This document shows, in pieces, positions 2,157 to 19,851 of a stretch of 64,000 nt of DNA. This DNA is from Bryobacteraceae bacterium (GTDB lineage: Bacteria > Acidobacteriota > Terriglobia > Bryobacterales > Bryobacteraceae). Made by a program: the position numbers and the translations under genes. The notes under the pieces were generated by a model. That model made no database searches. It saw nothing but the letters and a program-made list of their open reading frames with translations, and had not been told where the DNA came from. The stretch spans positions 6,881 through 70,880 of the forward strand of contig DATGZN010000030.1 in NCBI GenBank assembly GCA_035297145.1, given 5' to 3'. How positions within the stretch are numbered: the stretch's first letter is position 1; each line of letters starts with the position of its first letter.

Positions 2157-2193
2157 TTGACAATCGTCTCATAAACTGCCATAATCGTCTCAT
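2157..2193 (+). promoter_or_regulatory. Near-consensus sigma70-type promoter (TTGACA-17 nt-CATAAT) with an 11-nt direct repeat. It implies a leaderless or near-leaderless start for the AAA+ gene.
   Basis: TTGACA at 2157-2162, 17-nt spacer, CATAAT at 2180-2185, ATG at 2192. AATCGTCTCAT occurs at 2162-2172 and again at 2183-2193. Confidence 0.45.
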
Positions 2194-3349
2194 GAACAAG
2201 GACACTAGCTTCATGAGCGAGCTATTTCGTATCGTTAACGGTGCGCTTCGTCTCGACATAGACAAAGTCCGTAACTATACAGCGTTCCTCGCCGATAAAC
2301 TTGAAAAGGCAGGAGATGTAGCTTCTGCCGGACGCCTGCGCAAAATGCTCGAAGAGAGTGATCAGCAACTGCGGCCGGCCGGGGCGGCGTTTGCCAAAGT
2401 TCTGCCTGTCGATGCAGATAGCCGTTTCCCGCTCATAGAGCGGGTGAATCTAAAAACACTTTCCGAGCCTCCGGTTATGCTCGGCCAGGAGCAATGGGAC
2501 ACCGTCAACGAATTTCTGAGCATCGCGAAGAGCTATGCCCAGGCCGAAGTGAATGGCCTCACCACGTCGCTTAGCTTCTTGATGTACGGCCCGCCGGGAA
2601 CGGGGAAAAGCCGCCTCGCGCGGTACATCGCCCAGGAGCTGGGCCTTGACTTGTACGTCGCACGCCTCGATGGGTTGATCTCCTCATTCCTCGGAAGCAC
2701 GTCGAAAAACATTCGCGCTCTTTTTGACTTTGCGGCCAAGACTCCGTGTGTCCTGTTTCTCGATGAGTTCGATGCGATCGCGAAGCTGCGCGGCGACAGC
2801 CAGGAGCTGGGGGAACTGAAGCGCGTGGTGAACAGCTTCATCCAGAACCTGGATACGCTGGGCACTCAATCCATCGTGATCGCCGCGACGAACCACCAGG
2901 AACTGCTCGACTCGGCAATATGGAGGCGCTTCAGCTACCGGCTGGCGCTGGATTTTCCTACGGCGGATTTGCGCCGGAAGATGTGGGCTGCATTCATTGA
3001 GGAGTTGCAGTTCACGGCGCGGGAAATAGAGCTGCTGGTCGATCTGTCGGAAGGTTTCACCGGGTCAGACATTCACGAAGTCTGCGTGCGTCTCCACCGC
3101 CGCCGGATTACGAGGAAGGAGTTCCCCGAGCTGAAGGACGCCTTCCAGGTTCTCCAGAACATGGGCATCGGCGAAGGCGAAGACCGTCGCTTCTTATCGC
3201 TTCTGAGGGGTAAGGATGAGCATGCTGTCGCAACCAGGCTCCGTGACAGAAACGCCAAGCTATACAGTCACGCCGCTCTCGCCGATCTGTTGGGCGTTTC
3301 AAAAGCGACTGCTCATCGATGGGCGAAGGGAGTAAATACCGATGGCTGA
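2192..3349 (+). CDS. Classic-clade AAA+ ATPase with a C-terminal helix-turn-helix (IetA-like partner of the downstream subtilase).
   Basis: Walker A GPPGTGKS, Walker B VLFLDEFD, sensor-1 VIAATN, RRF arginine-finger region. C-terminal LADLLGVSKATAHRWAKG is HTH-like. 8-nt overlap with the next gene. Confidence 0.85.
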   Translation: MNKDTSFMSELFRIVNGALRLDIDKVRNYTAFLADKLEKAGDVASAGRLRKMLEESDQQLRPAGAAFAKVLPVDADSRFPLIERVNLKTLSEPPVMLGQEQWDTVNEFLSIAKSYAQAEVNGLTTSLSFLMYGPPGTGKSRLARYIAQELGLDLYVARLDGLISSFLGSTSKNIRALFDFAAKTPCVLFLDEFDAIAKLRGDSQELGELKRVVNSFIQNLDTLGTQSIVIAATNHQELLDSAIWRRFSYRLALDFPTADLRRKMWAAFIEELQFTAREIELLVDLSEGFTGSDIHEVCVRLHRRRITRKEFPELKDAFQVLQNMGIGEGEDRRFLSLLRGKDEHAVATRLRDRNAKLYSHAALADLLGVSKATAHRWAKGVNTDG

Positions 3350-5687
3350 TACACCGAGACCACCCCGGCAGGAACGCCTGCTGATAAAGGTCATCATGCC
3401 CAAACAAGGCACCGAGCGTAAGGTTGCGGGCGGCGGAGCGCCGCCTAAGCCGTTCCGGCCGGTTGACGCGAAGTACCGGGCGCGTCTTTCCAGCCAGGTT
3501 TCGGCTATACGCACCGCCATCGTTCCGCAGATCCGGACGGCCGGCGCCGCGCCCGTGCGGGTGAAGCTGCTCTCGAAGGCGGCGGCCAAAAGCCATCGGC
3601 CGGAGCATTTGTTCTCGCCTGAATCCTGCCCGATCGTGGGCGGCGGAAGCCTCGGGGAATTGTTCGTCAAGGCGACGCCGGAAGGATTGGACCGCCTCGC
3701 CGCGATGATCGAGAGCCGCGAGTCCGATCAGATGACGAAGGAGCTTTCTTGCGTTGAAACGATCGAGCCTGTGACGCCCGCCTATCGTCGCAGCGGTCTC
3801 GATGCCAAGGACCTGCTTCGCCGGAGCCCCCGCGGCAAACACGGTTTCATCACGCGGGTGGGTCTTTTCAACTTCGGCGCGGACCGCGACCAGCCCAAGT
3901 TGGTCGAAGATTTTGAAAGCACGTGCCGGAAGCGCGACATCAGGGTGCGCAGCAACCGGGGATATTCGCCGTCGAGCTTCACGTACGAAATCGAGTGCCG
4001 GAACGTCGACGATGTTGAGGCCCTGTCCCGCGTGATCGGCGTGCGTTCGATAACGCCCATGCCGCTCATTCGGACCATCCGTCCTCGGATGTTCGCGGCG
4101 AAGCCGTTGCCGCCTCTTCCGAGCGCCGATGACGTGACAGGAGACTTCCCCGTAGTGGTCGTTGTGGACAGCGGGATTTCCGACCAGATTCCCGGCCTGG
4201 AGAGCTGGGTCGTGGGGCGCGACTCTCAAGTCGCGCCGGAATACAGGAACACCGATCACGGTTCCTTCGTGGCGGGCCTCATCTGCTGGGGCGGCCAGCT
4301 TAATCCCACCATCGCCGGGCTCGACAACGGCCCGTGCGGAGTGTTCGATCTTCAGGTGATCCCGAATGAAGATCCCGCGAAAGGGGATACGCTCCCCTTG
4401 CTGGAATCAGAGTTTCTCGTCTCGCTGGACGAGGCGCTTCAGCAGCACGCCAATAGGTATAAGGTTTGGAATCTCTCGCTCGGCACGGACACTGTTTGCT
4501 CGCTCGACCAGTTTTCCAAGCTTGCCGAAGAACTCGACAATCTGCAGGAGCGATACCAGGTTTCCTTCGTCATCAGCGCCGGGAACTATGACACGCCGCC
4601 GCTCCTGGACTTCCCGCGCACGGGCGGCCAGGTGCAGGCCGGAAGGATCACCACGCCTGCCGACAGCGTCCTCGGGATCACTGTTGGCTCGGTGTCGCAC
4701 GTCGATTACAAGAAGGACGGGCCAAAGGAGCATCACCCTTCGGCCTTCTCGCGGCACGGCGCCGGGCCGAACTATGTGATCAAGCCTGACCTCATTCATT
4801 ACGGCGGATCGTGCTCTACGGACCTATCGCACATTTCCGGAATTCGTTCGGTGAACGGGACCGGCTCCGCTGAGAATGTTGGGACGAGCTTCGCTACGCC
4901 ACTTGTCGCCCGGACCCTTGCGCAGATCTATCATCAGGTCACGCCGACACCGTCGCCGGTGCTTGCCAGAGCCCTGCTGACGCACCACGCGCGCGATCCG
5001 CGTACCGCTCTCCGGGTGCCTGACGGAGACGAGAATTTCTTCGGGTTTGGCTTGCCTGCCCCGGTGCCGTATTGCCTGGAATGCACCCCGCATACGTCGA
5101 CGCTTGTTTTCGACGACGTGCTCCGGCCAGGGTATTTTCTCGAATGGAATGATTTCCCTTATCCGCCCTCGCTGAGCCGTGACGGGAAATATTTCGGCGA
5201 GATATGGATGACGGTGGCCTTCGCGCCGGCACGCGGCGCGAGATGGGGGACGGAATACTGTGAAACCCACATCGATGCTCATTTTGGGGTCTACCGGACC
5301 CAGAAATCGCGTGAGACAGGGCTGGTCAAAGCGAAACCAATATTTGTCGGCCTGGTGCCCCCGGAGCACAAGAACGTGGGCGAGCTTTACGAGTCCTACC
5401 AGGTGGAAAAGCTGCGCAAGTGGGCTCCGGTCCGGACGTATTACGGCGATCTCGGTGAGAACGGTGAGCGCGGCGATCGCTGGCGCATGATGGTTCGCCT
5501 TCTCACGCGGCATGGGATCGAGGATGAAGAAGCTTTCAAGCCGCAGCCTTTCTCTTTGATCGTGACGATTTCCGACCCGGAGAAGAAGGCACGGGTCTAT
5601 GACGAGATGGCGCAGATCGTTCGCAACCGCTTCCAGTCGCAGAACCTCACGGTTCGCGCGGCGGCGCGCGTTCGAGCAAAGCAATGA
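3342..5687 (+). CDS. S8 (subtilisin-family) serine peptidase, IetS-like.
   Basis: Catalytic motifs VVVVDSGIS (Asp), DHGSFVAGLI (His), NLSLG (oxyanion Asn) and GTSFATPLVAR (Ser). GAAGGGAG SD upstream. Start overlaps the stop of the AAA+ gene (ATGGCTGA). Confidence 0.9.
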   Translation: MADTPRPPRQERLLIKVIMPKQGTERKVAGGGAPPKPFRPVDAKYRARLSSQVSAIRTAIVPQIRTAGAAPVRVKLLSKAAAKSHRPEHLFSPESCPIVGGGSLGELFVKATPEGLDRLAAMIESRESDQMTKELSCVETIEPVTPAYRRSGLDAKDLLRRSPRGKHGFITRVGLFNFGADRDQPKLVEDFESTCRKRDIRVRSNRGYSPSSFTYEIECRNVDDVEALSRVIGVRSITPMPLIRTIRPRMFAAKPLPPLPSADDVTGDFPVVVVVDSGISDQIPGLESWVVGRDSQVAPEYRNTDHGSFVAGLICWGGQLNPTIAGLDNGPCGVFDLQVIPNEDPAKGDTLPLLESEFLVSLDEALQQHANRYKVWNLSLGTDTVCSLDQFSKLAEELDNLQERYQVSFVISAGNYDTPPLLDFPRTGGQVQAGRITTPADSVLGITVGSVSHVDYKKDGPKEHHPSAFSRHGAGPNYVIKPDLIHYGGSCSTDLSHISGIRSVNGTGSAENVGTSFATPLVARTLAQIYHQVTPTPSPVLARALLTHHARDPRTALRVPDGDENFFGFGLPAPVPYCLECTPHTSTLVFDDVLRPGYFLEWNDFPYPPSLSRDGKYFGEIWMTVAFAPARGARWGTEYCETHIDAHFGVYRTQKSRETGLVKAKPIFVGLVPPEHKNVGELYESYQVEKLRKWAPVRTYYGDLGENGERGDRWRMMVRLLTRHGIEDEEAFKPQPFSLIVTISDPEKKARVYDEMAQIVRNRFQSQNLTVRAAARVRAKQ

Positions 5688-5726: not shown

Positions 5727-6188
5727 ATGTCTGAACAAGAACACAAGCACGAGGTACGCATTCATATCGATCAGCACCCCTACGAATCGCCGAACCCGAC
5801 CACGGGCGCGGCGCTCTACGCGCTAGGCAACGTTCCAGCGGGCCTTGAACTTTACCGGGAAGTGAGCGGCGACAGGGAAGACAAGCCGATCGAGAACGGG
5901 CCGGAGGTCGTCCACCTGAAGGAGGACGAGCACTTCCACAGCGGCCCGCCCAAGACATACACGATTTACGTGAACGGCGAACAGAAAGTGGTAACCACCA
6001 AAACCGTCTCCTTCGCCGAGATCGCCAAGCTCGCGTATCCGATACCGCCGACGGGCGACAACATTCTGTATACGGTTTCCTACGAAGATGGTCCGCCTGC
6101 CAACCCGCAGGGCTCGATGAAGGAGGGCGAAACCGTCAAGGTCAAGAACGGGATGATCTTCAATGTCACAGCGACCGATAAGTCGTAG
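5727..6188 (+). CDS. Multiubiquitin-domain protein (two tandem beta-grasp/ubiquitin-like repeats).
   Basis: AAGGAG SD 7 nt upstream. Two internally similar halves (VRIHIDQHPY... and YTIYVNGEQK...). The C-terminal ...[16 protein letters not shown] matches my memory of the multiubiquitin (Multi_ubiq) family ending. Confidence 0.8.
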   Translation: MSEQEHKHEVRIHIDQHPYESPNPTTGAALYALGNVPAGLELYREVSGDREDKPIENGPEVVHLKEDEHFHSGPPKTYTIYVNGEQKVVTTKTVSFAEIAKLAYPIPPTGDNILYTVSYEDGPPANPQGSMKEGETVKVKNGMIFNVTATDKS

Positions 6189-7347
6189 CGCGGACCTGAA
6201 AAAACTGCGCGACGAAGGATATGACCTGGAAATCCGATCCGGCTGTTTGCTGGTGAAAGATGTGCCGTATGTGAACTCCCTCAAGGAGGTCAAACGCGGA
6301 ATCCTGGTCATGAAGCTGGTGCTCGCGGACGACGAGACGGCGCGTCCCGACGACCACGTGGCCTACTTTTCAGGCGATCATCCGTGCTTTGAGGACGGTA
6401 CCGAAATCGCGAAGATCAAGCACGGGAGCGGCGAGCGCTCGCTGGCTGAAGGCGTGGTGATACAGCATTCGTTTTCGGCAAAGCCCAAGCCGCACGATTC
6501 CTACCCGGATTACTATGCCAAGGTGACGTGGTACGTGAGTATCCTTTCCGGCCCCGCCTGGAGGATCGACAAGTCCACGGCGAAGACCTTCCCGTTCATC
6601 GAGCCGGAGAAGGATGACGACGAGCCGTTCAATTACACCGATACCGCTTCCAGCAGGGCCGAAATCGTCGCCGTTACTAATAAGATGGCGCTGAAGAAGA
6701 TCGCGATCGTGGGCATGGGTGGGACCGGGTCTTATGTGCTGGATCTCGTCGCGAAGACGCCCGTCCGGAAAATTCACATCTATGACGGGGACGCCTTCCT
6801 GCAGCACAATGCGTTCCGGTCGCCAGGCGCGCCTTCGGGCGATGACCTGCGGGCCAAGCAGTCCAAGGTGACGTACTTCAAAAACCTTTACGCCCGGATG
6901 CACAATGGCATCGTCGATCACGCCGTTTATATCGATGCCGGGAATGTGGAAGAACTACGCGGCATGGATTTCGTGTTTCTTTGTGTCGACAAGGGCAGCG
7001 TGAAAAAAGTGATCGTCGAAAAACTCGAAGAGTTTAACGTCCCGTTCAGCGACGTGGGCATGGGCATCCAGTTGAAGAACGGAGCCCTGGGCGGCATCGT
7101 GCGGGTTACTGCGAGCACGGAGAAGAAGCGCGACCACTTTCGCGGCAGGGTTTCCTTCGGGGACGCCGCGAGCGGAAACGAATACGATCGCAACATCCAG
7201 ATCGCCGACATGAACGCCCTGAATGCCGCTCTCGCCGTCATCAAGTGGAAGAAGCTCTTCGGCTTCTACCGCGATCTTAAATCCGAGCATCATAGCCAGT
7301 TCAGCATCGACACCAACCTGCTCCTCAACGAAGATAGGCCGCAATGA
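6163..7347 (+). CDS. ThiF/E1-like adenylyltransferase with a ~170-aa N-terminal extension (possibly a prokaryotic E2-like domain).
   Basis: Rossmann motif [19 protein letters not shown] followed by IYDGDAF. The N-terminal [28 protein letters not shown] is typical of E1s linked to multiubiquitin. 26-nt overlap with the Ubl gene. Confidence 0.8.
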
Positions 7348-7799
7348 AACAGGGAATCGTCCTCAAGCACGAATTTGTCGAGTTCATCCCTGGCGAACTC
7401 AAGGAGGGGACGATTTACATTTCGATCCGGTTTGGGACGGCATCGCACCTGTGTTGTTGCGGCTGCGGCAACAAGGTCGTCACGCCGCTGCGACCCACGG
7501 ACTGGAAGCTCATTTTTGACGGCAAGACCGTTTCGCTCGACCCCTCGATCGGGAACTGGAGTTTCGCGTGCCGGTCTCACTACTGGATAAGGAATAACAG
7601 GGTTCGATGGGCGGCTCAGTGGTCTCCGGAAGAGATCGCGGCCGGAAGAGCCCATGACCGGTTTGCGAAGGATAGATATTTCGACACCGCTGACACGGCG
7701 ACGGATGGTGCGCTGAAGAAAGCTCCAGTGACGGTGGAAACCGCCAAGGCGGGACCGCGTTGGTGGTTGAGGATAAAGAAGTGGTGGCAGCGCTCATGA
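7344..7799 (+). CDS. DUF6527-family protein (Cys-cluster small protein of Ubl-conjugation operons).
   Basis: ATGA overlap with the E1 stop. Cys cluster [15 protein letters not shown] and the GNW motif (SIGNWSF), which I recall as the hallmark of DUF6527. Confidence 0.7.
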
Positions 7800-7835: not shown

Positions 7836-9005
7836 ATGATACCTAAGCCGATAGACCAAATCACCGAAGCAGACCTCAGCGACCTCGTAAGCGCTAGCGT
7901 TGCCGAACGAAAAACACTCGATTACAAACAACAACTGCCGGATACGAACGATGCCGGCAAGAGAGAACTGCTGGCAGACGTTTCATCTTTTGCGAACACG
8001 GCGGGCGGAGATCTCGTTTTCGGCATGACGGAGAGCGCCGGCGTGCCGACAGCCATACCTGGGGTCCAGATCGGAAACACCGACCAGGAGATTTTGCGGT
8101 TCGACAACATCATCCGGGATGGGCTGTCCCCCCGCATCCGCCACACAACGAGGGCGGTGCCTCTGACGAACGGCGGTTATGTCCTGATCATCCGATCGGA
8201 GCGGAGCTGGTACGGTCCTCACCGAGTAATTTTCAAAGGCGACAGCAGGTTTTACGGGCGCACCACCAACGGCAAATATGAGCTTGATGTAACCGACTTG
8301 CGCAATGCGTTTCTCTTCGCAAGCGCCGTGACCGAAAAGATTTCAGCTTTCAGGGCAGAACGGGTCATCGCGTTGGAAAACGGCCAGCCGCTCGCCCCGC
8401 TCGCGGAAGGTCCGAAACTCGTTATCCATTGCATGGCCCTCGAATCCTTCGGAGCCAGGCCGCAATATGACGTCCTGGCCCTTGACGGAATTCAGCCCAT
8501 GTATGCGACACGCCTGAGCGGTTGGGGAGCGCGCATAAACTTTGAAGGCCGGATTTTCATTGCGTCGGGCGAACCCTCTAGCGCGTATACGCAAATCTAC
8601 AGGAACGGAGTGATAGAAGCCGTTCGCGTCGGCGTCTTGAACAGCCCCCAAAGTCCAGGCGTCATACCCAGTCTTGCGTACGAGGAAGCCGTGGTAGGCT
8701 ATCTGCCGCAGTGTTTCCAGATCATGAGGCAATTGGGATGTAGTCCGCCGGTTCTGGTTGGGATCACATTGATCGGCGTACGGGGGCTGAAGTTGGCGGT
8801 TGACGTGATGGTTGAATTGTCGATGGGGGGCGCCAAGGCAATCGACCGAGACGTCCTTATGCTGCCTGAGATCGTTGTCGAAGATCTTTCCACTCCGGCC
8901 GCGCCGCTGCTGAAGCGGACCCTCGACCTGGTTTGGAACGCCTGCGGATTTCCCTCGTCGCCATATTTCGATGCCGCTGGAAAATGGATGGGGCGAACCC
9001 GCTGA
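7836..9005 (+). CDS. AlbA_2 (Schlafen-like) domain protein with an uncharacterised ~260-aa C-terminal region.
   Basis: N-terminal ERKTLDYKQQL...LLADVSSFANTAGGDLVFGM...YVLIIRSERSW...FYGRT follows the AlbA_2/'divergent AAA' pattern (E-x-K ... AFANT-GG-L-GV ... Y-R). Confidence 0.7.
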   Translation: MIPKPIDQITEADLSDLVSASVAERKTLDYKQQLPDTNDAGKRELLADVSSFANTAGGDLVFGMTESAGVPTAIPGVQIGNTDQEILRFDNIIRDGLSPRIRHTTRAVPLTNGGYVLIIRSERSWYGPHRVIFKGDSRFYGRTTNGKYELDVTDLRNAFLFASAVTEKISAFRAERVIALENGQPLAPLAEGPKLVIHCMALESFGARPQYDVLALDGIQPMYATRLSGWGARINFEGRIFIASGEPSSAYTQIYRNGVIEAVRVGVLNSPQSPGVIPSLAYEEAVVGYLPQCFQIMRQLGCSPPVLVGITLIGVRGLKLAVDVMVELSMGGAKAIDRDVLMLPEIVVEDLSTPAAPLLKRTLDLVWNACGFPSSPYFDAAGKWMGRTR

Positions 9006-9043
9006 AGCGGAAGATCTGGGTACGGCCGGGGTGTCACGAACCA

Positions 9044-9502
9044 ATGATTGTCGAGTTTAATTTGCATCCGACGCTCGGTGAGGGGGTCTACGCACACGTT
9101 TTCCAAATAGATGATAAGGCATACAAGCTGTTCTTGGCCTTCCCTTCTCATCACAGCGAGGAGAAGCGTAGATCAACTTTCCAGTCGCAATGTGCGGCGT
9201 ATCAGCGTGCCGGTTCTGACCCTGATCTAAAGGAACACGTTGCTACTTTCTACGGCACTTGCGTCATTGAGGACGTGATTGATAAAACAGGACAGAGCAT
9301 CAAGGGCAACTATATGCTGGACTGTTGCTATGTTCTCGAAGCGCTGAACGGCAGCAAAACGAAGGTTCTGGCAGTCCGTGATGCCTTCAGCTATGTGGGC
9401 GAAGCTTACGTCGCCTTCCATCAGAAGGGTTTCACTTTGGCGGACGCCGATATTTTCAATTTTGACGACCCGGAGCGGTTTAAGTTTGTTGACTTTCACT
9501 GA
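9044..9502 (+). CDS. Small (152 aa) protein with protein-kinase-like motifs, ending right after a DFG-like motif.
   Basis: LGEGVYAHVF (Gly-loop-like), AYKLF (beta3 Lys-like), LADADIFN (xxDxxxxN catalytic-loop-like), VDFH at the C-terminus. Start is uncertain: ATG at 9044 (after the upstream stop), 8984 or 8933. Confidence 0.4.
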   Translation: MIVEFNLHPTLGEGVYAHVFQIDDKAYKLFLAFPSHHSEEKRRSTFQSQCAAYQRAGSDPDLKEHVATFYGTCVIEDVIDKTGQSIKGNYMLDCCYVLEALNGSKTKVLAVRDAFSYVGEAYVAFHQKGFTLADADIFNFDDPERFKFVDFH

Positions 9503-9604
9503 ACGATGGCCACTCAGGCCGCGCGGGCGTGGCCCGTGCGGAGACGGGGGACTTCGCCGTCGGCGTGAACAGCGCGGGGGCCGGGGAGAGGACGATTTCG
9601 GTGA

Positions 9605-10405
9605 TCATGGGTGCGCTCCTGGTGAAGGTTTCAAGCGATCGACGATCCTTAAAAGCTGGCTGGCGAATACGATCACCTCGGCGGCGTCTTCCGGATGCGT
9701 CGGGACGTGGCGGTGACTTTGTGGGTTCTTATAAAGACCGATCGCGCCCGCGAAGAGATTGGCCATCGCTTCCTGTTCGGCGGCCGGTAGCTGCGTATCC
9801 GTAAGCGGGCCGGGGGTTACCGCCTGGCCCTTCTTCTCGGCGGGCTTGAAGGCGTCGCGCATCAGCTCCGTGCCGTAGTCATTGGGTCCGAAGCTGCCTC
9901 CGGCGCGGACGGCGACTTCTACTTCCCGGAAGGCCTGGAAGACGGCCGTGTCGTATTCGCCGCGCATGAAAGCCGGATATACCTTGCTGGCGATGAGCGG
10001 GTGAAGCTGGGCTTTTGGCAACAGGCCCGCTTTGCGATAGGCCCCAAATTCATCGCGGGATGTGATCTGCTTGGCCCGCCGCGACACGAGGAACCAGCCC
10101 CCGGTCGAGCTTGGCTTTTCCACGAGTAAGCCCGCGCTCTGAAGCCATGCCCAGGCCTCCATGAGCGCCAGGTTCACGTCGGGTTGCCGGTTGCCGTACT
10201 CCGGCTGCTCTCGGGCGTTCGTGGGGGTCAGCGAATTAAAGAAATTGTGGCGGCTGATGCCGCCGTGCTGGTGGACGGTGTTCCCGGACACGCCCTCATA
10301 GCTGTTGAGGTGCAGGAGCAGGATGCCGGCGAGTTCTTCCACGGCGAGATCGAGGAGGTCTGCGGCATTCGGGACGAAAGACGATAAAGAGCGATACATG
10401 GTCAT
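9605..10405 (-). CDS. TIGR02391 (Hypoth_Ymh)-type protein, possibly HEPN-related.
   Basis: C-terminal half LHPLIASKVYPAFMRGEYDTAVFQAFREVEVAVR...LFAGAIGLYKNPQSHRHV...AAEVIVFASQLLRIVD fits the TIGR02391 pattern, with K where the usual RNP-x-x-H motif has R. ATG at 10405 overlaps the upstream stop (ATGA). Confidence 0.65.
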   Translation of the reverse strand: MTMYRSLSSFVPNAADLLDLAVEELAGILLLHLNSYEGVSGNTVHQHGGISRHNFFNSLTPTNAREQPEYGNRQPDVNLALMEAWAWLQSAGLLVEKPSSTGGWFLVSRRAKQITSRDEFGAYRKAGLLPKAQLHPLIASKVYPAFMRGEYDTAVFQAFREVEVAVRAGGSFGPNDYGTELMRDAFKPAEKKGQAVTPGPLTDTQLPAAEQEAMANLFAGAIGLYKNPQSHRHVPTHPEDAAEVIVFASQLLRIVDRLKPSPGAHP

Positions 10406-11106
10406 TGCACCGGGGGAACGCCGCGGACGATGACCAGGCGGCGGTTGTTGCGGGCGTCCCAGTCGAGCTCGATGCGGCTTAACGGCTCGGTGCATTGCTC
10501 GTCGCAGAACTGCGTGAAGTTAAACGTCACGTTGAAGGGATCGACGCTGACGACGGTGGCCATGCCCTCGCGATCAACGCCCGGCGCCCACTCCGGATAG
10601 TGGTTGCCGAGGCGCTTGTTGACGGTGCGGACGGTGACGTATTTGCCTTTGCACTTCAGCAGCTCTCCGGCCGGGCTGCAATGCGAGGTGAGGAGGTCAC
10701 GATAGAGACTGTCCGAGGCCTTCACGCTCCGGGAACCGGAGCGAATGTAGGCCGGGCCTGCAAAATGCGGCTTGTCCTTGCTATAGGAGATTTCGACGGC
10801 GACAACGCGCTTCCCGTCGAGATCCAGGACGCTCTTCCCCGGACGGATGGCCGGATAGCACTCTTCCCCGGCTTCGCCGACGCGCCTCTGCACTTTCTCG
10901 GGGTCATCGACTCCGAGGAGAGCGCCGGTCTTGTCGTCGACCCCGATGAACAGTACGGCCGTTTCCGTTTCTGGCAGGGAATTCGAAAAGGCGACCAGCG
11001 TCTGACGCAGCTCGTGGCCTTTGACGGATTGCGGCTTTCGTTCGACGAAATTATCTTCGGAGGGGCGTGTCGCCAGGCGAGCGGTGAGCCGTTGTTCGGT
11101 TGTCAT
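10402..11106 (-). CDS. AlbA_2 (Schlafen-like) domain protein, second copy.
   Basis: EDNFVERKPQS...LVAFSNSLPETETAVLFIGVDD...GKRVVAVEISYSKDKPHFAGPAYIRSGSRS matches the AlbA_2 pattern. The ATG at 11106 gives an ATGA overlap with the upstream stop (an alternative ATG lies at 11124). Confidence 0.7.
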   Translation of the reverse strand: MTTEQRLTARLATRPSEDNFVERKPQSVKGHELRQTLVAFSNSLPETETAVLFIGVDDKTGALLGVDDPEKVQRRVGEAGEECYPAIRPGKSVLDLDGKRVVAVEISYSKDKPHFAGPAYIRSGSRSVKASDSLYRDLLTSHCSPAGELLKCKGKYVTVRTVNKRLGNHYPEWAPGVDREGMATVVSVDPFNVTFNFTQFCDEQCTEPLSRIELDWDARNNRRLVIVRGVPPVQ

Positions 11107-12110
11107 GCGCTGGCCCTTTCCCACTGGTCATATTTCTGAACGAGAGGTTCCTTGGCGATGTCGAGGGGCTGTCCCCACAGCGCGCGACGCTGATCGTCCG
11201 GGAGCTTCCAGAAGGCCGCGATCGCGGCTTCCGTCCCGAAGTGGTTCCGGAGCGCGGCCTCGCGGAGCAACCGTGAATACGCGTCACGAGCGAGGTGCTC
11301 GATTTGCCTGGTCCTGTGCCAGCAAACGTCCTCCCGCTGGTCAGCGGGATAACTCTGCACGGCTTCGTCCCAGGGGTTCAGGTGCTCCGTGTCGCTGCGC
11401 ATGGCGAAGGCCTCCACCAACAGGTCGCGGGTGTCGTCGCCGGCGCGGGCGAAGGTCTGGCAGCGGTGTACGAATTGTTTTTCAGTCCGGCCGATGTCCG
11501 GGAGGATGAGGGCCTCCAGTGATCTGACGAATTGATGGAGACGGTCCTGGCCGGTCTCCTTCAGGCCGTTGAACAGCGTATTCATTCCTCGAATGACCCG
11601 CCTGAACTGGGTTTTGTCGGCGTCCATCGCTGCGACGCCCGCGCGTAGCGAGATGCCGTCTTCAAGCCAGGCCGTGTTGATGGGCGCACGCTTCCAGCCT
11701 TTGCTTTGGTGGAACGCGGGCATCTGGCTCATCTGCCGGATGCCGGGAACGCCGTTGACGGAAGATCCACACAACAGATCGGCGCCGTCGGCGACCTCGA
11801 TGCCGGCGCGGAGGTGCAGCATGTAGAACAGCAGGCTCAGGTCATTGTCCAGCCGGTGGTGCACAGCGTCGAGGATTTCGGGATTGTCCGATGGTTCTTC
11901 CACAAAGAGCACGAGATTGGCCCGGCCGAGGCGCTCCATGCGGATGGAACCGATCCACTCTTTCCAGATGCCGAGGTCGGGGACCGGCACGGCGGGCATC
12001 ACCCAGGTTCCATCGGAAAGCTGGAACGCGGCGCCGGGAAGGTCGGTGTAGACGTTATTGACTGTCAGCATGGCGAACTTGCTTTTAGTCTGGAACGAGT
12101 GGAGGCCCAT
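11103..12110 (-). CDS. Hypothetical 335-aa protein with an Rx4H (HEPN-like) motif in a helical C-terminal half.
   Basis: Long ORF with normal composition. FAMRSDTEHL contains R-x4-H. No other family recognised. Confidence 0.55.
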   Translation of the reverse strand: MGLHSFQTKSKFAMLTVNNVYTDLPGAAFQLSDGTWVMPAVPVPDLGIWKEWIGSIRMERLGRANLVLFVEEPSDNPEILDAVHHRLDNDLSLLFYMLHLRAGIEVADGADLLCGSSVNGVPGIRQMSQMPAFHQSKGWKRAPINTAWLEDGISLRAGVAAMDADKTQFRRVIRGMNTLFNGLKETGQDRLHQFVRSLEALILPDIGRTEKQFVHRCQTFARAGDDTRDLLVEAFAMRSDTEHLNPWDEAVQSYPADQREDVCWHRTRQIEHLARDAYSRLLREAALRNHFGTEAAIAAFWKLPDDQRRALWGQPLDIAKEPLVQKYDQWERASA

Positions 12111-12156
12111 GGTTCCATCGTAGCCGCGGTCTGGCGTGATGCCCCGCCAGTGCCAA

Positions 12157-12447
12157 CTATTCCGGGTCGTCCCAGCTCAAGGTGCACCGTTCTCCATGGG
12201 CAATCTGCCGCTCATAGCTGACCGGGTCGTCAGCCTTGAGCCGGAGTAACCAGTAAACGCGGTTCACGGCGTTCTTCATGATGAGCTTAATTTCGTCATC
12301 AGAGATCCGCGAATAGCCGACTTTGCCGTTGCAAGCGGGACAAGTTTTGCCGGCGTGCACGTCCTCGATCGGGCCGTTGCGAAACGCCAGGACGACAATG
12401 GCTTTTGCTTCACGGATAAGATCGCTCTGATCGGATTTTGGTGTCAT
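12157..12447 (-). CDS. Hypothetical 96-aa protein, first gene of the four-gene operon.
   Basis: ORF directly downstream of a strong promoter-like element. Contains CPAC. No family recognised. Confidence 0.5.
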   Translation of the reverse strand: MTPKSDQSDLIREAKAIVVLAFRNGPIEDVHAGKTCPACNGKVGYSRISDDEIKLIMKNAVNRVYWLLRLKADDPVSYERQIAHGERCTLSWDDPE

Positions 12448-12482
12448 TTCGAGTGCGCTTCTTTCAAGCTGACTGAAACGGC

Positions 12483-12511
12483 AGTATAACGGTACTTTGA
12501 GTCGCGGTCAA
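12483..12511 (-). promoter_or_regulatory. Sigma70-type promoter (TTGACC-17 nt-TATACT) reading into 12447->9605.
   Basis: The reverse complement of 12483-12511 reads TTGACC GCGACTCAAAGTACCGT TATACT, about 35 nt upstream of the ATG at 12447. Confidence 0.45.
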
Positions 12512-12560
12512 AACCTCGCGGCCAGTGCATGACGCGACCTAGAATGGAGCAAGCAGGCGG

Positions 12561-12854
12561 CTAGCGCAATGTCGGCCGCCGACTGAACAACAGCCCCTTC
12601 GGACCTTTCCACTCCTGGCGCCGCTGCTCAATCCACCGCTGCAGTGCGGCTCCTTCGACGGTGTACACCTTGCCGCTGTTCACGACCTCGAAAACCGTAG
12701 CCACGGTCGGGACCGGCAGTACCGCCTGCAGCTGCGCGTTGGCATGAGTGACGTAAAGATGCGCAGCGTCATAAGTACTCGACGCGATAACGTCCAGGCT
12801 GTGCCGGCGGCCGGACGCATCCGTGACGGTAACCGTGCACCAGTGTTCGGGCAT
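12561..12854 (-). CDS. Hypothetical 97-aa protein.
   Basis: ORF with plausible composition. No motif recognised. Confidence 0.4.
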   Translation of the reverse strand: MPEHWCTVTVTDASGRRHSLDVIASSTYDAAHLYVTHANAQLQAVLPVPTVATVFEVVNSGKVYTVEGAALQRWIEQRRQEWKGPKGLLFSRRPTLR

Positions 12855-12949
12855 ACCAAAAATAGTTTACCGCCATGGGCGAACAAACGGAGAATACACG
12901 CACGGACGCTGCGGGGCTACGCGGCTTCGGCTTCGTCGGCCGGCTGATT

Positions 12950-13402
12950 CTACCGGCGCGCGGATCGCCCCCGCGTTGAGCCGGACCGGTTGGGAGCAGG
13001 CGACAGAGCTTCCAGAATGCGGCAATTGCCGATTAGACTTTTTCCCGGACACCGGCGCTGGATTCGGCGCAGCTCAGCCGCAAGCCCTCGCAGGTCGGCG
13101 ACTTTCCGCTCAATTTCCTTCAGGTGGTTCGCAGTAATTCGATCGACCTCGGAACACTTCTGCCTAGGTTGAGTGGACAGGCGCAGAAGATCGCGGACCT
13201 GGTCGAGCGTGAAGCCGAAGCTCCGGCATCGGTGAATGAACTGCAGCCGGTGCAAGTGTTCCTGCTTGTAGGCGCGGTAATTACCCTCCGTGCGCGGCGG
13301 CGGCGGCATGAGTTTGATTTGCTCGTAATACCGGATGGTCACGACCTTGACCCCAGCTTCTTTCGAGAGATGGCCGATGCTCATACGCCCGGCTAAATTC
13401 AT
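12950..13402 (-). CDS. MerR-family, heavy-metal-type transcriptional regulator.
   Basis: N-terminal HTH MSIGHLSKEAGVKVVTIRYYEQIKL and NYRAY. C-terminal Cys pair CPGKSLIGNC plus an upstream Cys (QKCSEV), as in CueR/ZntR/CadR-type sensors. Start at 13402 (MNLAG) or 13384 (MSIGH). Confidence 0.8.
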   Translation of the reverse strand: MNLAGRMSIGHLSKEAGVKVVTIRYYEQIKLMPPPPRTEGNYRAYKQEHLHRLQFIHRCRSFGFTLDQVRDLLRLSTQPRQKCSEVDRITANHLKEIERKVADLRGLAAELRRIQRRCPGKSLIGNCRILEALSPAPNRSGSTRGRSARR

Positions 13403-13406
13403 ACGC

Positions 13407-13437
13407 TTGACCCTATAGTTACTATAGGCCGCATTCT
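13407..13437 (+). promoter_or_regulatory. MerR-type promoter/operator: TTGACC, 19-nt spacer containing a perfect 7-3-7 dyad, weak -10.
   Basis: TTGACC at 13407-13412. CCTATAG-TTA-CTATAGG at 13412-13428. CATTCT at 13432-13437. The ATG of the downstream gene is at 13444. Confidence 0.6.
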
Positions 13438-13443
13438 GTAAAG

Positions 13444-13971
13444 ATGAACAGGACCAAATGCGCGTTGATCGCATCTTTGTTTCTTTGCCGTGGAAACGCC
13501 TTCGCGCAGTCGGTCGACGTCGACAAGGAGCCGGAGCCTGTCGCAATCGTGGAGCTTGGGGGAGCTGGTAGCTGGAACCTCAAAGGCGGATCGAGCTTCG
13601 GCGCGGACCTAGCGGCTGAAGTTACGCCGATAGAGAACTGGCTGGAACTCGAAGCGGGCGTCACGCCGCTTTTCACCCGTCACTTGACAGAATGGGATAC
13701 CGACCTTCTGTTTAAGAAGCCTTGGACCCTCTCGAAAAAAGCGGAGTTCATGATCGGCATTGGCCCGGAGTGGATTCATACGCGGCAATACGGCGTGACA
13801 ACGAACTCGATCGCCGCTGAGGCCGTGCTGGATTTTATGTACTGGCCCTCCGGGAAGCATAGGTTCGGCTGGTTTATCGAACCGGGCTACGAGTACAACT
13901 TTGGGCGAGGGCATGAGCGATCAATTGGCATAAGCGGCGGCCTGCTGATCGCGATCCGACGAGGCCCATAG
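13444..13971 (+). CDS. Secreted small beta-rich protein (possibly outer-membrane), the likely MerR-controlled cargo.
   Basis: Signal-peptide-like N-terminus MNRTKCALIASLFLCRGNAFAQS. Alternating hydrophobic/aromatic pattern with Gly-rich turns. Confidence 0.55.
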   Translation: MNRTKCALIASLFLCRGNAFAQSVDVDKEPEPVAIVELGGAGSWNLKGGSSFGADLAAEVTPIENWLELEAGVTPLFTRHLTEWDTDLLFKKPWTLSKKAEFMIGIGPEWIHTRQYGVTTNSIAAEAVLDFMYWPSGKHRFGWFIEPGYEYNFGRGHERSIGISGGLLIAIRRGP

Positions 13972-14126
13972 GGGTCCGAGAGTCAAACGGATTCGCCGCT
14001 GCCGTGCCATGGATTGAAGTGAGAACGCCGGCGACGGAGGTCTATGCTTGCCAGTCCCCGATACCAGGAATCGGGACGAGCCATTGATGAGGTTTGGAGC
14101 GTTGAAGGGAAATTGAAGAGCGGCCG

Positions 14127-15536: not shown

Positions 15537-17318
15537 ATGCGGCTTTCGCGACTGCAGATTGCCAATTTCCGAAACTTCCAGAGCATCGACATCGCTCTGA
15601 GCGAACATGCGATCTTCGTGGGCGAGAACAAAGTCGGGAAGTCGAACCTGATTTACGCGATTCGGCTGGTCCTCGATCCGTCGTTGCCGGATTCCCTTCG
15701 TCAACTCCGCATCGAGGACTTCTGGGACGGTGTTCCGCGCCCGTTGTCGAAGGATGACCGAATTGAGATTTCCATCGATATCGCTGACTTCGAGGACGAC
15801 CCGAAGCAGCTTGCGGTGCTCTGCGAGCATTTGGTGGCGCACGAGCCGATGGTCTCGCGCCTTACCTACGCGTTCGGTCCATTCAGAGCCGAGGGCGAGG
15901 AAGCGCCGAAGGACGCCGATTATGAGTGGGTGATTTACGGCGGTGATCGGATCGAGAACATCGTGGCAGGCGATGTGCGGCGACGGCTCCCCTTAGAGTT
16001 TCTGGCAGCGCTGCGCGATGCCGAGGCGGACCTCGGGAACTGGCGGCGGTCTCCGCTTCGCCCCCTGCTGGACCGGGCGGCGGCACAAATCGATCCTAAG
16101 ACGCTCGGAGGGATCGCCGCGTCGGTCACGGAGGTAACGAAGTCGGTTACGGAGACCGATGCGATCAGCGCGCTGTCGCAACAGATCAAAGATCGGCTGG
16201 AGGAGATTGGCGGGCCGTCGCAGGGGTTGGATACGTCGCTGGGATTTTCTCCGGCGGATGCCGACCGCCTGCTGCGGGCGCTGCGTATCTTCATCGACGA
16301 GGGTAAACGCGGGATCAGCGAGGCAAGCCTCGGTTCGGCCAACATCATCTATCTGGCGCTGAAGCTCCTGGAGATTGAGCAGCTCGTTGACGAGGGCGCG
16401 CGCGATCATACGTTTCTCGCAATTGAAGAACCGGAGGCGCATCTGCATCCATACCTTCAGCGGCTCGTGTATCGGGATGTGTTGCGGCGCCGAGCCCACC
16501 AAGAGGGAGAAGAAGCGGAAGGCGCGAACGAGCGCAGGACCATTCTGGTGACCACGCACTCCCCGCACATCGTGAGCGTCTCGCCGCTGGAATCTCTCGT
16601 TGCGCTGCGCAAGGTTGACGGCGCAACAGAGGCCGCGTCGGCTGCGGAATTGGAGTTCGAGGAAGCAGATCGGGCTGATATTGAGCGGTATCTGGATGTA
16701 TCGCGAGGCGAAATGCTGTTCGCCAAGGGCGTTTTACTGGTTGAGGGCGATGCGGAAGCGTATTTGGTGCCGGCTCTCGCCCGGTTGATGGACAAAGATC
16801 TCGACCAACTGGGGATTGTGGTCTGCTCGATTTCAGGGACTCATTTCGGGCCGTATGTGAAGCTGCTGAAAGGCCTGAACATTCCCTCTGCTGTGCTCAC
16901 AGATCGCGATCCGAGCGACCAGGGAGACCGTGGCGTCGCGAGAGTGCTCCAGCTTCTGCAGGATACTGTGCCCGCCAAAATCCTGGCGAAGTACCCGACC
17001 GAAGAGAAGCAGCTCGACCTGGCGCTTAAGCGGGGACTCTTCTTGAACGATCATTGTCTTGAGGTAGACCTGTTCAAGGCGGGTCGGCATAAGAGCATGT
17101 GCGGCGTAATCGCTGAATTGACGGAGAATGGCGCTGCGAAGAAGCGAGCCGGGGAATGGTCTACAAAGCCAGCGAATATGGATGCCGCCCAACTCGTAAA
17201 AGACATTACCGCGATCGGCAAGGGGCGCTTTGCTCAACGGCTCGCCAGCATCATCACAAAGGACATCTGTCCGAAGTACATCGGGAGCGCGATTACGTAT
17301 GTTGCGGAGCGGTGCTAG
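15537..17318 (+). CDS. gajA: OLD-family ATP-dependent nuclease (GajA-like; ABC-ATPase plus TOPRIM).
   Basis: LQIANFRNF...FVGENKVGKSNL (Walker A), FLAIEEPEAHLHP (Walker B/D-loop region), LLVEGDAEAYLVP (TOPRIM). GAAGGGGA SD. Confidence 0.8.
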   Translation: MRLSRLQIANFRNFQSIDIALSEHAIFVGENKVGKSNLIYAIRLVLDPSLPDSLRQLRIEDFWDGVPRPLSKDDRIEISIDIADFEDDPKQLAVLCEHLVAHEPMVSRLTYAFGPFRAEGEEAPKDADYEWVIYGGDRIENIVAGDVRRRLPLEFLAALRDAEADLGNWRRSPLRPLLDRAAAQIDPKTLGGIAASVTEVTKSVTETDAISALSQQIKDRLEEIGGPSQGLDTSLGFSPADADRLLRALRIFIDEGKRGISEASLGSANIIYLALKLLEIEQLVDEGARDHTFLAIEEPEAHLHPYLQRLVYRDVLRRRAHQEGEEAEGANERRTILVTTHSPHIVSVSPLESLVALRKVDGATEAASAAELEFEEADRADIERYLDVSRGEMLFAKGVLLVEGDAEAYLVPALARLMDKDLDQLGIVVCSISGTHFGPYVKLLKGLNIPSAVLTDRDPSDQGDRGVARVLQLLQDTVPAKILAKYPTEEKQLDLALKRGLFLNDHCLEVDLFKAGRHKSMCGVIAELTENGAAKKRAGEWSTKPANMDAAQLVKDITAIGKGRFAQRLASIITKDICPKYIGSAITYVAERC

Positions 17319-19128
17319 GTTTTCGCTGCTCTACCGGGCCGCGGCCGAGGATCTTCGGGACAACCCCGGACAGTGGCAGGCATACGAATCGACCGGCAAC
17401 TGTGTGGTGCTGGCCGGCCCTGGCAGCGGCAAGACGAAGACCCTCACAATCAAACTGGCGCGGATGATGGCGGAGGATGTCGAGCCTCCTCGCGGCATCG
17501 CCTGCATCACCTACAACTCCGAGTGTGCGGCGGAGCTCGGGCGCCGCCTGGACAAACTCGGAATTCAAGAATCCTCGCATGTATTCATCGGCACGATACA
17601 CAGCTTCTGCCTTAAGCATGTGGTGGTTCCGTACGGCAGGCTGGCAGGGCTCGAAATGCCCACCGATGTGAAGGTGGCGACGCCGGATGAACAGGAGCGC
17701 GTTTTCGCAGAAGCCGTAGCAGAGCTATACGGGCCGAACCGGGACCCGACCTATCTGCGCACCGACTTCGACCGGTATCGCCGGACGCATCTGGACCGGG
17801 ATCAACCGGAGTGGCTGGGGGATGATGCGGAAACGGCGCAGCTAATCGAAATCTACGAACGGAAATTGCGGGAGCGCGGGGCAATTGATTTCGACGACAT
17901 GATGTTACTCGGTCTTCGGCTGATCGAGGGAAACCAGTGGGTCCGGTCGTGTTTGCAGGCACGGTTTCCGATCATTGCCGTGGATGAATATCAGGATCTG
18001 GGACTCGCACTGCACAGGATGGTAGTAAGTCTCGTATACGACGCCGGCATCCGCCTGTTCGCGGTGGGCGACGCCGACCAATCGATTTACGGTTTCGCGG
18101 GAGCGATGCCGCACCTGCTTCAGGAACTGTCGGAAATGGAGGGCATGGAGACGGTTCCCCTGCGCTTCAACTACCGCTCTGGTCTGGAAATTGTTGAGGC
18201 GTCGGAAGCGGCTCTGGGCGAGGAGCGCGGATACGAGGCCAAGGCCGGGTACGCCGGCACGATCCACTTTTACAAACTCCCGAAGGGGCTGGAAGAGCAA
18301 GCCGAGCAGATTGCGAAGGTGCTGATCCCTGGCGCACTGGGGCGCCGCAAAGGCCGGACGCTGGGCGACATCGCGGTGCTCTACGTTGACAAGAACGATG
18401 GAGACGTCATTGAAGGGCAGGTGAGTGCGGCGGGGATGCAGTTTATCCGGGTCGATCGAGGCGCACCTTATCGTAAAACGAAGTTCACGCGATGGCTCGA
18501 AGAGTGCGCCGCATGGTGCGCCGGAGGCTGGCGGAGTGGCACGCCGCGTTTGTCCTCGCTGTTGTCGCGCTGGCAGCTGTTCAATCCCTCCATACGGTCG
18601 GAGAAAGAGCGGAGCCAACTGAAGGTGGATCTCGTGCAATTCTTGTTCGGTCACCGGGACGAGAAACTCTCGCTTAGGGATTGGCTCGGAGCGATGGTCG
18701 ATCAGTGTATAGCCCGCGCTTTTGCGGCAGATCCGACGCAGCGGGATGAGGCGGAGGCCCTCGAAGTGTTGCGGCGGGCGTGCGGCCCGAAGGGCAAACT
18801 GGCTAAGCTGACCGTGGGCGCATTCGGAGGCCAGGCGGGCGCGTCTGACCATGTAAACCTGATCACGCTCCACAGCGCCAAGGGCATGGAGTTTGACATT
18901 GTTCTGATGATGGGCCTCGAACAGGGTCGCATCCCGAAGTGGGATGCCAAGACCGCCGAGAAGAAGGGCGAAGCGCGGCGGCTGTTCTATGTGGGTCTGA
19001 CGAGGGCCAGGCACGAAGTGCACTTGCTGTGCTCGGGATTTACGCTGAACCGGAAAGGCCGGCGCTTTGATAACGGCGCCTCCGAATTCATGAGAGAAGT
19101 CTACCGCAAGGTCAAGAAACAGTCTTGA
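17299..19128 (+). CDS. gajB: UvrD/PcrA-type superfamily-1 helicase (GajB-like).
   Basis: VLAGPGSGKTKT (Walker A), AVDEYQD (motif II), TLHSAKGMEFD and LFYVGLTRAR (motifs V/VI). The ATG at 17299 overlaps the nuclease gene by 20 nt. Confidence 0.8.
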   Translation: MLRSGARFSLLYRAAAEDLRDNPGQWQAYESTGNCVVLAGPGSGKTKTLTIKLARMMAEDVEPPRGIACITYNSECAAELGRRLDKLGIQESSHVFIGTIHSFCLKHVVVPYGRLAGLEMPTDVKVATPDEQERVFAEAVAELYGPNRDPTYLRTDFDRYRRTHLDRDQPEWLGDDAETAQLIEIYERKLRERGAIDFDDMMLLGLRLIEGNQWVRSCLQARFPIIAVDEYQDLGLALHRMVVSLVYDAGIRLFAVGDADQSIYGFAGAMPHLLQELSEMEGMETVPLRFNYRSGLEIVEASEAALGEERGYEAKAGYAGTIHFYKLPKGLEEQAEQIAKVLIPGALGRRKGRTLGDIAVLYVDKNDGDVIEGQVSAAGMQFIRVDRGAPYRKTKFTRWLEECAAWCAGGWRSGTPRLSSLLSRWQLFNPSIRSEKERSQLKVDLVQFLFGHRDEKLSLRDWLGAMVDQCIARAFAADPTQRDEAEALEVLRRACGPKGKLAKLTVGAFGGQAGASDHVNLITLHSAKGMEFDIVLMMGLEQGRIPKWDAKTAEKKGEARRLFYVGLTRARHEVHLLCSGFTLNRKGRRFDNGASEFMREVYRKVKKQS

Positions 19129-19821: not shown

Positions 19822-19851
19822 CGTGTTCTCCGGTCTTGTTATGGTCACTGT

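Follow-up and report, generated by a model that had tools for sequence, protein, structure and literature searches.

Gene content and organisation of the locus

In the 64,000-nucleotide (nt) stretch studied here, which comes from an Acidobacteriota (Bryobacteraceae-like) genome and is referred to as the window, four minus-strand genes encoding proteins of 96, 335, 234 and 266 amino acids (aa) lie in a row (Table 1). The last three, called the trio below, code for a member of a protein family that we name fam335, for a predicted prokaryotic Schlafen protein (pSlfn) and for a protein of the Hypoth_Ymh family (Ymh), respectively. A preliminary description of this DNA had presented the four genes as one operon for an abortive-infection or toxin-type system. 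The genes are all present as described, the 267 aa given there for the last product being 266 aa plus the stop codon, and the two ATGA stop/start overlaps within the trio were confirmed at exactly 11106-11103 and 10405-10402. On balance, we read the locus as a co-transcribed stack of separable single-gene immune modules, situated in the defence island of an integrative, ArdC-bearing element.

The overlaps had been taken to indicate stoichiometric co-expression, a conclusion that they do not support, as overlaps also join unrelated modules. In the related locus L028 (loci compared with the window carry the prefix L), an RHH-PIN toxin-antitoxin pair, the trio and a recombinase stub are all linked by overlaps of 1-4 nt, and in L113 the Ymh gene is overlap-joined to an integrase gene; since a toxin-antitoxin pair and an integrase are linked in this manner too, ATGA coupling is no proof of joint action. 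Within the window itself, a third ATGA at 9608-9605, unmentioned so far, starts a 42-codon open reading frame (ORF), and ATGA junctions joining long ORFs recur elsewhere, for example at 7344, 44499, 51590 and 55692, so that such overlaps are not peculiar to the trio locus.

The element upstream of the 96-aa gene, previously called a strong promoter-like element, is indeed present and agrees with the sigma-70 consensus at 10 of 12 positions. It is the single match in 9300-13000 (3.7 kilobases, kb) against 0.6 expected in shuffles, and the match is therefore without statistical significance. Both hexamers are nevertheless unchanged in L028 and L033, where they lie inside a highly conserved intergenic stretch, and we consider it probable from this sequence pattern that the element drives the whole read-through transcription unit. 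An Rfam search of 8500-13500 gave zero matches. An integron-type cassette array was rejected as a description of the locus, the 4-nt overlaps being too tight for attC sites.

Table 1. Coordinates in the window of the genes and sequence features of the locus, with the basis of each entry.
Feature	Coordinates	Strand	Basis
96-aa gene	12447..12157	minus	ORF list and sequence
335-aa gene (fam335)	12110..11103	minus	ORF list and sequence
234-aa gene (pSlfn)	11106..10402	minus	ORF list and sequence
266-aa gene (Ymh)	10405..9605	minus	ORF list and sequence
sigma-70-like element TTGACC-17-TATACT	12511-12483	minus	consensus scan, upstream of 96-aa gene
E17-DNFV-E22-R-K24, Ex4ExK catalytic motif (pSlfn)	11035..11058	minus	alignment of 37 homologues
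R238-S-D-T-E-H243, R-x3-E-H (Rx4H) motif (fam335)	11382..11399	minus	alignment of 76 homologues
K226-N-P-Q-S-H231, HEPN motif with Lys for Arg (Ymh)	9730..9713	minus	family alignment
42-codon ORF, 5'-terminal remnant of a tyrosine recombinase gene	9480..9608	minus	DNA alignment to intact integrase start in L113 (8792-9790); BLASTP E 3e-4

Separate occurrence of the gene families

The neighbourhood of the 335-aa protein was compared over 24 genome loci carrying fam335 (Acidobacteriota, Nitrospirota, Gemmatimonadota, Nitrospinota and 'Deltaproteobacteria'), 21 of which have at least 1.5 kb of downstream sequence, and over three long contigs. Searches with tblastn and a profile hidden Markov model (HMM) revealed no homologue of the 96-aa protein, the 234-aa pSlfn or Ymh at these genome loci (0/24 for pSlfn or Ymh) or on the three contigs, and all-against-all clustering of the neighbouring ORFs yielded no recurrent partner, with transposases in three loci and HigB/helix-turn-helix (HTH) pairs in three. 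The pSlfn family was followed through 80 metagenome loci, of which 49-54 have informative flanks. fam335 was found at four of the 80 and Ymh at five, about 75 being without both, and the four loci with fam335, which have Ymh as well, are all at least 82% identical to the window in the fam335 protein; the other pSlfn genes adjoin KAP NTPases, HsdS, AbiEi/Eii or integrases. Clustering of the neighbours of fam335 and pSlfn gave no shared partner or upstream ORF, only overlapping-frame artefacts and, in small subsets, transposases, HigBA, KAP NTPase, HsdS and AbiE. The same clustering showed no conserved adjacent antitoxin ORF at the fam335 and pSlfn homologues, ORFs below 60-70 aa and RNA antitoxins not being systematically covered. 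Ymh homologues of 72-74% identity are solo as well (L115-L120), beside transposases or housekeeping genes. The trio as such is confined to loci at least 82% identical to the window. Because the families occur overwhelmingly apart, and because the 96-aa gene is split off by an RHH-PIN pair in relatives, the idea of four genes forming a single co-conserved system has to be given up.

Among the close relatives, the 335-234-266 order with the same overlaps recurs in L028, L029, L030, L033, L034, L035, L044 and L121. In comparison with L028 and L033, the trio homology block begins exactly at the fam335 ATG (12110) and ends about 30-55 nt past the Ymh stop (~9549-9577), so the cassette extends in the window from 12110 to ~9550 and ends in a truncated integrase gene. 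L113/L114 have an intact copy of this stubbed tyrosine recombinase gene. The stub itself also lies behind Ymh in L028, L033 and L121, and directly behind pSlfn in L122; judged by these alignments, it marks the downstream edge of the trio cassette. Subsets of the trio also exist: in L031/L032, an 85%-identical fam335 is found by itself, immediately behind a DndB/CBASS cluster, pSlfn stands alone at 79% identity (L122), and pSlfn and Ymh occur together and without fam335 at 80% and 91% identity (L113/L114). A stub of about 55 nt of the fam335 3' end was left upstream of pSlfn and Ymh in L113, which points to a deletion there. As these variants lie at the same divergence as the trio (79-91% identity), the modules are separable. 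The synonymous divergence (dS) between the window and L028 is 0.42 for fam335 and 0.15 for pSlfn, and this two- to three-fold difference between adjacent genes argues for a mosaic history. All trio genes are intact and under purifying selection, with ratios of nonsynonymous to synonymous divergence (dN/dS) of 0.05-0.21 overall, namely 0.09-0.21 for fam335, 0.13-0.18 for pSlfn and 0.05-0.11 for Ymh.

Several further observations were made at the edges of these modules. Gain or loss at exact gene boundaries is seen at 12110 and 12139-12151 in the window and at 5179-6004 in L028, where a 48-aa ORF and the RHH-PIN pair lie upstream of fam335, linked to it and to each other by overlaps of 1-4 nt. 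The fam335-deletion junction carries a TAGAGTGTGATAACGT..ACACTCT element with a perfect 7-nt inverted repeat (L113 ~7165-7200, L122 ~4930-4965), which could be an insertion sequence (IS) or miniature inverted-repeat transposable element (MITE) end, or an operator. The pSlfn-Ymh(-integrase) block adjoins genes for DUF4007, a protein of 1,149 aa and a PAPS reductase (L113 9962-15153; L121 8270-8539), a cluster that resembles phosphorothioation systems of the Ssp/Dnd type.

The 96-aa gene encodes a small protein with a CPxC motif that is unmatched in Pfam, NCBIfam, PADLOC and PHROGs, and its dN/dS is 0.4-0.6. In L028, L029, L030 and L033, the 48-aa ORF and the RHH-PIN pair are located between it and the 335-aa gene, and for this reason the 96-aa gene is assigned, from gene order, to the ArdC-97aa-96aa backbone of the mobile element, outside the nuclease cassette. 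A blastn comparison of the window with L028/L033 gave three separate homology blocks, comprising ArdC, the 97-aa and 96-aa genes, and the trio. Relative to L028/L033, a MerR-family regulator (12950-13546, minus strand) and a 175-aa ORF (13444-13971, plus strand) are inserted between ArdC and the 97-aa gene, in the region 12912-14092.

The 234-aa Schlafen protein

The AlbA_2 domain already noted in the 234-aa protein was confirmed (PF04326, E 3.3e-15, 57 bits against a 25.3-bit cut-off). The AlphaFold2 (AF2) model, with a predicted local distance difference test score (pLDDT) of 90, comprises two domains: residues 17-130 make up an alpha/beta Slfn/AlbA_2 RNase domain at the N-terminus, and residues 156-228, predicted at pLDDT ~90, an all-beta domain of six strands at the C-terminus. 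Foldseek aligned the N-terminal domain at a probability of 1.0 both with the bacterial AlbA_2 structures 2kyy and 3lmm and with human SLFN11/13/5/14 and the SAMD9 tRNase domain. E17, E22, R23 and K24 of the Ex4ExK motif are invariant in 37 homologues of 36-82% identity, and Ex4(E/D)xK is the catalytic motif of prokaryotic Schlafens and needed for defence (Perez Taboada et al., Nat Microbiol 2026, PMC13056530). As far as fold, motif, architecture and genomic context can tell, the 234-aa protein is a prokaryotic Schlafen nuclease.

The closest published counterpart is RorSlfn5, in which a Slfn nuclease is joined to a C-terminal Ig-like sensor and a single gene suffices; after recognition of a phage tail assembly chaperone, the protein cuts tRNA (PMC13056530). 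In the same survey, 97% of pSlfn domains were fused to putative sensors and 70% lay within 10 kb of known defence genes (PMC13056530). Going by the published description of RorSlfn5, the 234-aa protein resembles RorSlfn5/pSlfn5 in its N-terminal Slfn/AlbA_2 domain, its short C-terminal beta-rich domain and its defence-island site. The motif position is nearly equal (E17/E22 in the 234-aa protein, E15/D20 in RorSlfn5), and the gene is single in most relatives. The C-terminal domain, Ig-like in RorSlfn5, is predicted as all-beta in the 234-aa protein, and the Foldseek search gave no match specific to it. The host differs, being an acidobacterium, and so does the gene arrangement in this lineage, where translational coupling ties the gene to two further nuclease-type genes.

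The 266-aa Ymh protein

Assignment of the 266-aa protein to the Ymh family was likewise confirmed, with matches to Hypoth_Ymh PF09509 (E 2.5e-25, 89.1 bits against a cut-off of 25) and TIGR02391 (63.4 bits against a 39.45-bit cut-off). KNPQSH does stand in place of the usual RNP-x-x-H, as had been remarked, and Lys alternates with Arg across the family: N227 and H231 are invariant, and position 226 is Lys in the sub-clade of the window and Arg in a sister sub-clade (YRNSTGH). From this alignment, Lys at position 226 is read as a clade feature and not as decay. The 266-aa protein is itself full-length and well conserved within a large Ymh clade, for which homology searches gave 1,997 matches. 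Its N-terminal ~130 residues are conserved too and are unmatched in Pfam, NCBIfam and PHROG.

Ymh is a HEPN family whose members occur as solos or fused to paraMORC, AbiJ-NTD1 or AbiTii domains, in restriction-modification (R-M) contexts (Anantharaman et al. 2013, PMC3710099). The 266-aa protein fits this family in scoring above both curated cut-offs and in keeping the motif Asn and His, and its relatives are also solo in variable, R-M or defence-type neighbourhoods, as described there. It departs from the family in the Lys that its sub-clade has for the catalytic Arg and in the extra conserved N-terminal domain. PADLOC gave weak matches to PD-Lambda-3_B (E 1.1e-5) and to Aga_HEPN (Argonaute-associated HEPN). 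PD-lambda-3 is described as a two-gene Escherichia coli abortive-infection system (Vassallo et al. 2022, as relayed in PMC10952713 and PMC13190303), which PMC13190303 uses as a control for abortive infection and PMC10952713 lists with a PD-(D/E)XK nuclease. The model of its B protein matches the HEPN half of the Ymh protein, and, according to these accounts, the system combines the B protein with a nuclease and has abortive infection as its mode of action. The match is weak and partial, however, and no PD-Lambda-3_A homologue lies at the locus in the window. The nuclease partner is PD-(D/E)XK in PD-lambda-3 and Schlafen here, and it is only among close relatives that the pSlfn/Ymh pairing is conserved.

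The 335-aa protein and the fam335 family

fam335 is a large family, with 368 close clusters of homologues and at least 1,179 representatives at 50% identity, spread over Acidobacteriota, Nitrospirota, Gemmatimonadota, Nitrospinota, 'Deltaproteobacteria' and a conjugative Bradyrhizobium plasmid. Almost all members measure ~320-340 aa and share a single architecture; in the longer ones, the additional residues contain no recognisable domain and seem to stem from read-through or from extension of the N-terminus. The window protein is unmatched in Pfam, NCBIfam, PADLOC and PHROGs. For 76 divergent members of 25-75% identity, over which conservation was also counted, no Pfam HEPN model matched at E up to 1, Pfam gave scattered chance matches only, and PADLOC produced nothing consistent beyond chance matches. 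When PDB sequences were searched with a profile, the sole matches were spurious ones to Gla domains, and hhalign of fam335 against the Ymh profile gave a probability of 0.07. On phages, fam335 was not found by a pattern scan of IMG/VR or by tblastn of INPHARED.

The R-x4-H within FAMRSDTEHL, pointed out earlier, was verified and proved to be near-invariant: R238 is present in 76/76 members, S239 in 63/76, E242 in 72/76 and H243 in 75/76, and R238-H243 is the only conserved one of the five R-x4-6-H strings in the window protein. G54, R216, R238 and W301 are invariant, E/D199 is acidic in 76/76, and K11, F12, W49, G115, R171, G175, R190, H192, R196, E/D199, E242, H243, R266 and others are kept in at least 67 of the 76 (most in at least 90%). 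The AF2 model, built with 41 homologues, is confident (pLDDT 92, predicted template modelling score 0.90) and divides into an alpha/beta domain (residues 1-130) and an all-alpha domain (residues 146-312). In the latter, helix 188-202 bears E/D199, and the motif closes helix 225-242, after which come a low-confidence loop and the long helix 256-283. A position at the C-terminal end of a helix has been described for HEPN motifs (PMC3710099). Foldseek searches of PDB and BFVD with this model gave nothing below E 0.07 and thus no significant neighbour; the HEPN domains of HepT (6m6u) and 1wwp were aligned at a non-significant E of 2.6-3.6 with template modelling (TM) scores of 0.34-0.43, and these two also had the best target-normalised TM-scores (0.41-0.43, E ~3). 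Profile searches and structure prediction, proposed earlier as checks, have accordingly yielded a confident model that matches HEPN folds only at E >1: the earlier HEPN assignment keeps its conserved Rx4H at a suitable helix end and loses any significant HMM, profile-profile or Foldseek similarity.

Set beside HEPN RNase toxins (HepT/MntA, RnlA, AbiV, Csm6/Cas13), fam335 shares R-x4-H with a polar residue after the Arg; in the model, the motif would likewise sit at a helix end before a loop and a long helix, with a conserved acidic residue upstream, and HepT and 1wwp head the non-significant fold matches by target TM-score. fam335 differs in lacking significant similarity at the HMM, profile-profile and Foldseek levels, in having no MNT-type or other antitoxin partner, and in carrying an additional alpha/beta N-terminal domain without detected relatives as well as the added conserved residues R171, R190, H192, R196 and R216. 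Our leading hypothesis, to which we give not quite an even chance, is that fam335 is a HEPN-like RNase, HEPN membership being plausible. It is also possible, if somewhat doubtful, that fam335 is no nuclease: it could have a regulatory function, sense nucleotides or signals by binding them, or be an anti-defence protein that has conserved Arg/His by coincidence. The absence of significant sequence, profile or fold similarity to HEPN or any other nuclease agrees with such a role, and the conserved residues are mostly Arg, for which phosphate binding fits as well as catalysis. Against it speak the R-x3-E-H signature with its polar residue, helix end and following long helix and the acidic residue 199 (76/76) located two helices upstream, which together match the HEPN description in PMC3710099, and the fact that HEPN domains (6m6u HepT and 1wwp, TM 0.41-0.43) are the sole recognisable folds among the best weak Foldseek matches.

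Genes near fam335 homologues include CBASS, Qat, PIN toxin-antitoxin, GmrSD, R-M and MADS genes, transposases and integrases, and many other neighbours are ordinary metabolic genes. On the conjugative Bradyrhizobium plasmid, a 27%-identical fam335 adjoins a HEPN/Toprim-associated protein, AbiV and a CBASS operon. This neighbourhood supports an immune or conflict role, and fam335 is a candidate stand-alone immune protein combining a sensor with an RNase-like domain. A fuller proposal, which we put forward as speculative and rather unlikely to hold in all its parts, is that fam335 constitutes an undescribed, widespread single-gene immune family, whose helical domain would be a highly divergent HEPN-like or an entirely new metal-independent RNase built around R238/E242/H243 and switched on by the N-terminal domain in infection.

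The defence island around the trio

Bases 1-22,800 of the window form a dense defence island on an integrative element, which holds the trio, MerR and ArdC among other genes. At its left end, a DUF499 protein (cut at the window edge) and then a pair of an AAA ATPase and an S8 subtilase (1-5684, plus strand) are possibly another defence module. The compact operon at 5727-7799 (plus strand), which includes the ATGA at 7344 and consists of multiubiquitin (PF14452), DUF6791-ThiF E1-like (NF004805, E 5e-170) and DUF6527 genes, has the look of a defence-associated bacterial operon for ubiquitin-like conjugation (E1-type). A second Slfn/AlbA_2 protein of 389 aa (7836-9005, plus strand) is convergent to the trio and has an intact E24-x4-D29-x-K31; its C-terminal region of ~240 aa has no family match, and this protein and the 234-aa one are not close paralogues. 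The end of its gene is overlapped by the 5' end of a 189-aa ORF (8933-9502, plus strand), also convergent on the trio and unmatched in Pfam, NCBIfam, PADLOC and PHROGs. Further along, an OLD-family ATPase/TOPRIM protein followed by a UvrD-type helicase (15537-19125, plus strand) forms a Gabija (GajA/GajB)-like pair. A serine resolvase (19198-19848, minus strand) and a tyrosine integrase (21609-22787, minus strand) lie near the island edge, which fits an integrative mobile element bearing the whole defence cluster. Elsewhere, relatives of the trio genes adjoin Qat, CBASS, KAP NTPase, an Ssp-like cluster, R-M, MADS, AbiV and toxin-antitoxin pairs.

Discussion

The system proposed in the preliminary description survives in part. 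Two putative HEPN RNase-like proteins and a Schlafen-like protein had been put forward; the 266-aa Ymh protein is HEPN and the 234-aa protein is a Schlafen with an intact motif, while the 335-aa protein lacks significant HEPN similarity. By analogy with the nuclease-type immune families of the 234-aa and 266-aa proteins and their place in a defence island, an abortive-infection or toxin-type role remains the most likely one for the trio proteins, but not as one conserved four-gene system. We favour the explanation that the proximity of the trio genes is due to recent gene shuffling and that they are not parts of one machine. Their shared expression from the backbone promoter would then have arisen by module insertion and deletion at gene boundaries inside one transcription unit, which need not imply a complex.

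Under the proposed mechanism, each trio protein would be a self-contained sensor-effector that stays inactive until infection. In pSlfn, the C-terminal beta domain may recognise a phage protein, whereupon the Ex4ExK Schlafen domain would cut tRNA, as in RorSlfn5. The Ymh protein is envisaged as a metal-independent HEPN RNase (K/R-N-x3-H) under the control of its N-terminal domain. In fam335, the alpha/beta N-terminal domain could serve as sensor or autoinhibitor, and the helical domain (R171, R190, H192, R196, E199, R216, R238, E242, H243) could be a phosphate/RNA-binding, HEPN-like RNase. For each of them, the outcome would be translation arrest, accompanied by a smaller phage burst or abortive infection.

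Several points weigh against a stack of independent modules acting in this way. The immune roles of all three trio proteins are predictions from sequence, and the RNase assignment of fam335, albeit the leading hypothesis, is based on the motif and the secondary-structure pattern. At least eight loci, among which no fewer than four different flanks occur (the window; L028/29/30/33; L034/35; L044; L121), preserve the register of the trio together with its overlaps, and the trio appears ancestral to the deletion variants and hence to have been a unit of inheritance for some time. Two independent and distant co-localisations are also found: in L102 (24-1604), a 36%-identical pSlfn has a Ymh gene as its immediate upstream neighbour, the reverse of the order in the window, and in L009 (3953-6972) a different Slfn protein of 375 aa is encoded 0.9 kb upstream of a 63%-identical fam335. 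Moreover, in PD-lambda-3, which has been validated experimentally as an abortive-infection system, the partner of the nuclease is a protein weakly like the Ymh protein.

These points bear on whether the trio, or at least pSlfn with Ymh, is a genuine, young and lineage-restricted cooperative multi-gene system, for example with sensing and executing split between the proteins or with two RNases that have different RNA targets and depend on each other for control, a reading that we hold to be unlikely. The persistence of the overlapping trio across the different flanks, the Ymh-pSlfn pairing in L102 and the nuclease-paired protein of PD-lambda-3 that weakly resembles Ymh all count in its favour, as does the survival of the pSlfn-Ymh pair beyond the deletion of fam335. 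On the other hand, each family is mostly solo, with solo versions at the same divergence as the trio, and no trio locus falls below 82% identity to the window, so that together they represent roughly one evolutionary event. In addition, sensor-fused pSlfn proteins function as single genes (PMC13056530), and the overlaps also link clearly unrelated modules. It is very improbable that the trio is addiction or stabilisation (toxin-type) cargo for the maintenance of a plasmid or integrative and conjugative element (ICE) and not for phage defence, since, for all the mobile-element setting with ArdC, integrase and resolvase, the RHH-PIN pair inserted into the same transcription unit in relatives and the HigB/HTH pairs near fam335 homologues, no small cognate antitoxin gene is conserved beside any trio gene (ORFs below 60-70 aa were not systematically covered), anti-phage activity was shown experimentally for the pSlfn family (PMC13056530), and chromosomal locations away from any element genes are common for fam335 and Ymh.

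Read as a stack of separable modules, the locus illustrates that genes of a defence island do not make up a system simply by being joined through tight ATGA overlaps and having a promoter in common, as modules come and go at gene boundaries. The 234-aa gene is placed in the newly validated prokaryotic Schlafen defence class. To the best of our knowledge, Acidobacteriota is a phylum in which pSlfn systems have been unstudied. Since the pSlfn and Ymh genes here are further members of known families, fam335 is the part most worth following up. This large, unannotated family, whose confident model has no fold match and which seems enriched beside CBASS, Qat, AbiV, R-M and toxin-antitoxin genes, is a candidate new single-protein immune effector and the sole potentially new part of the locus.

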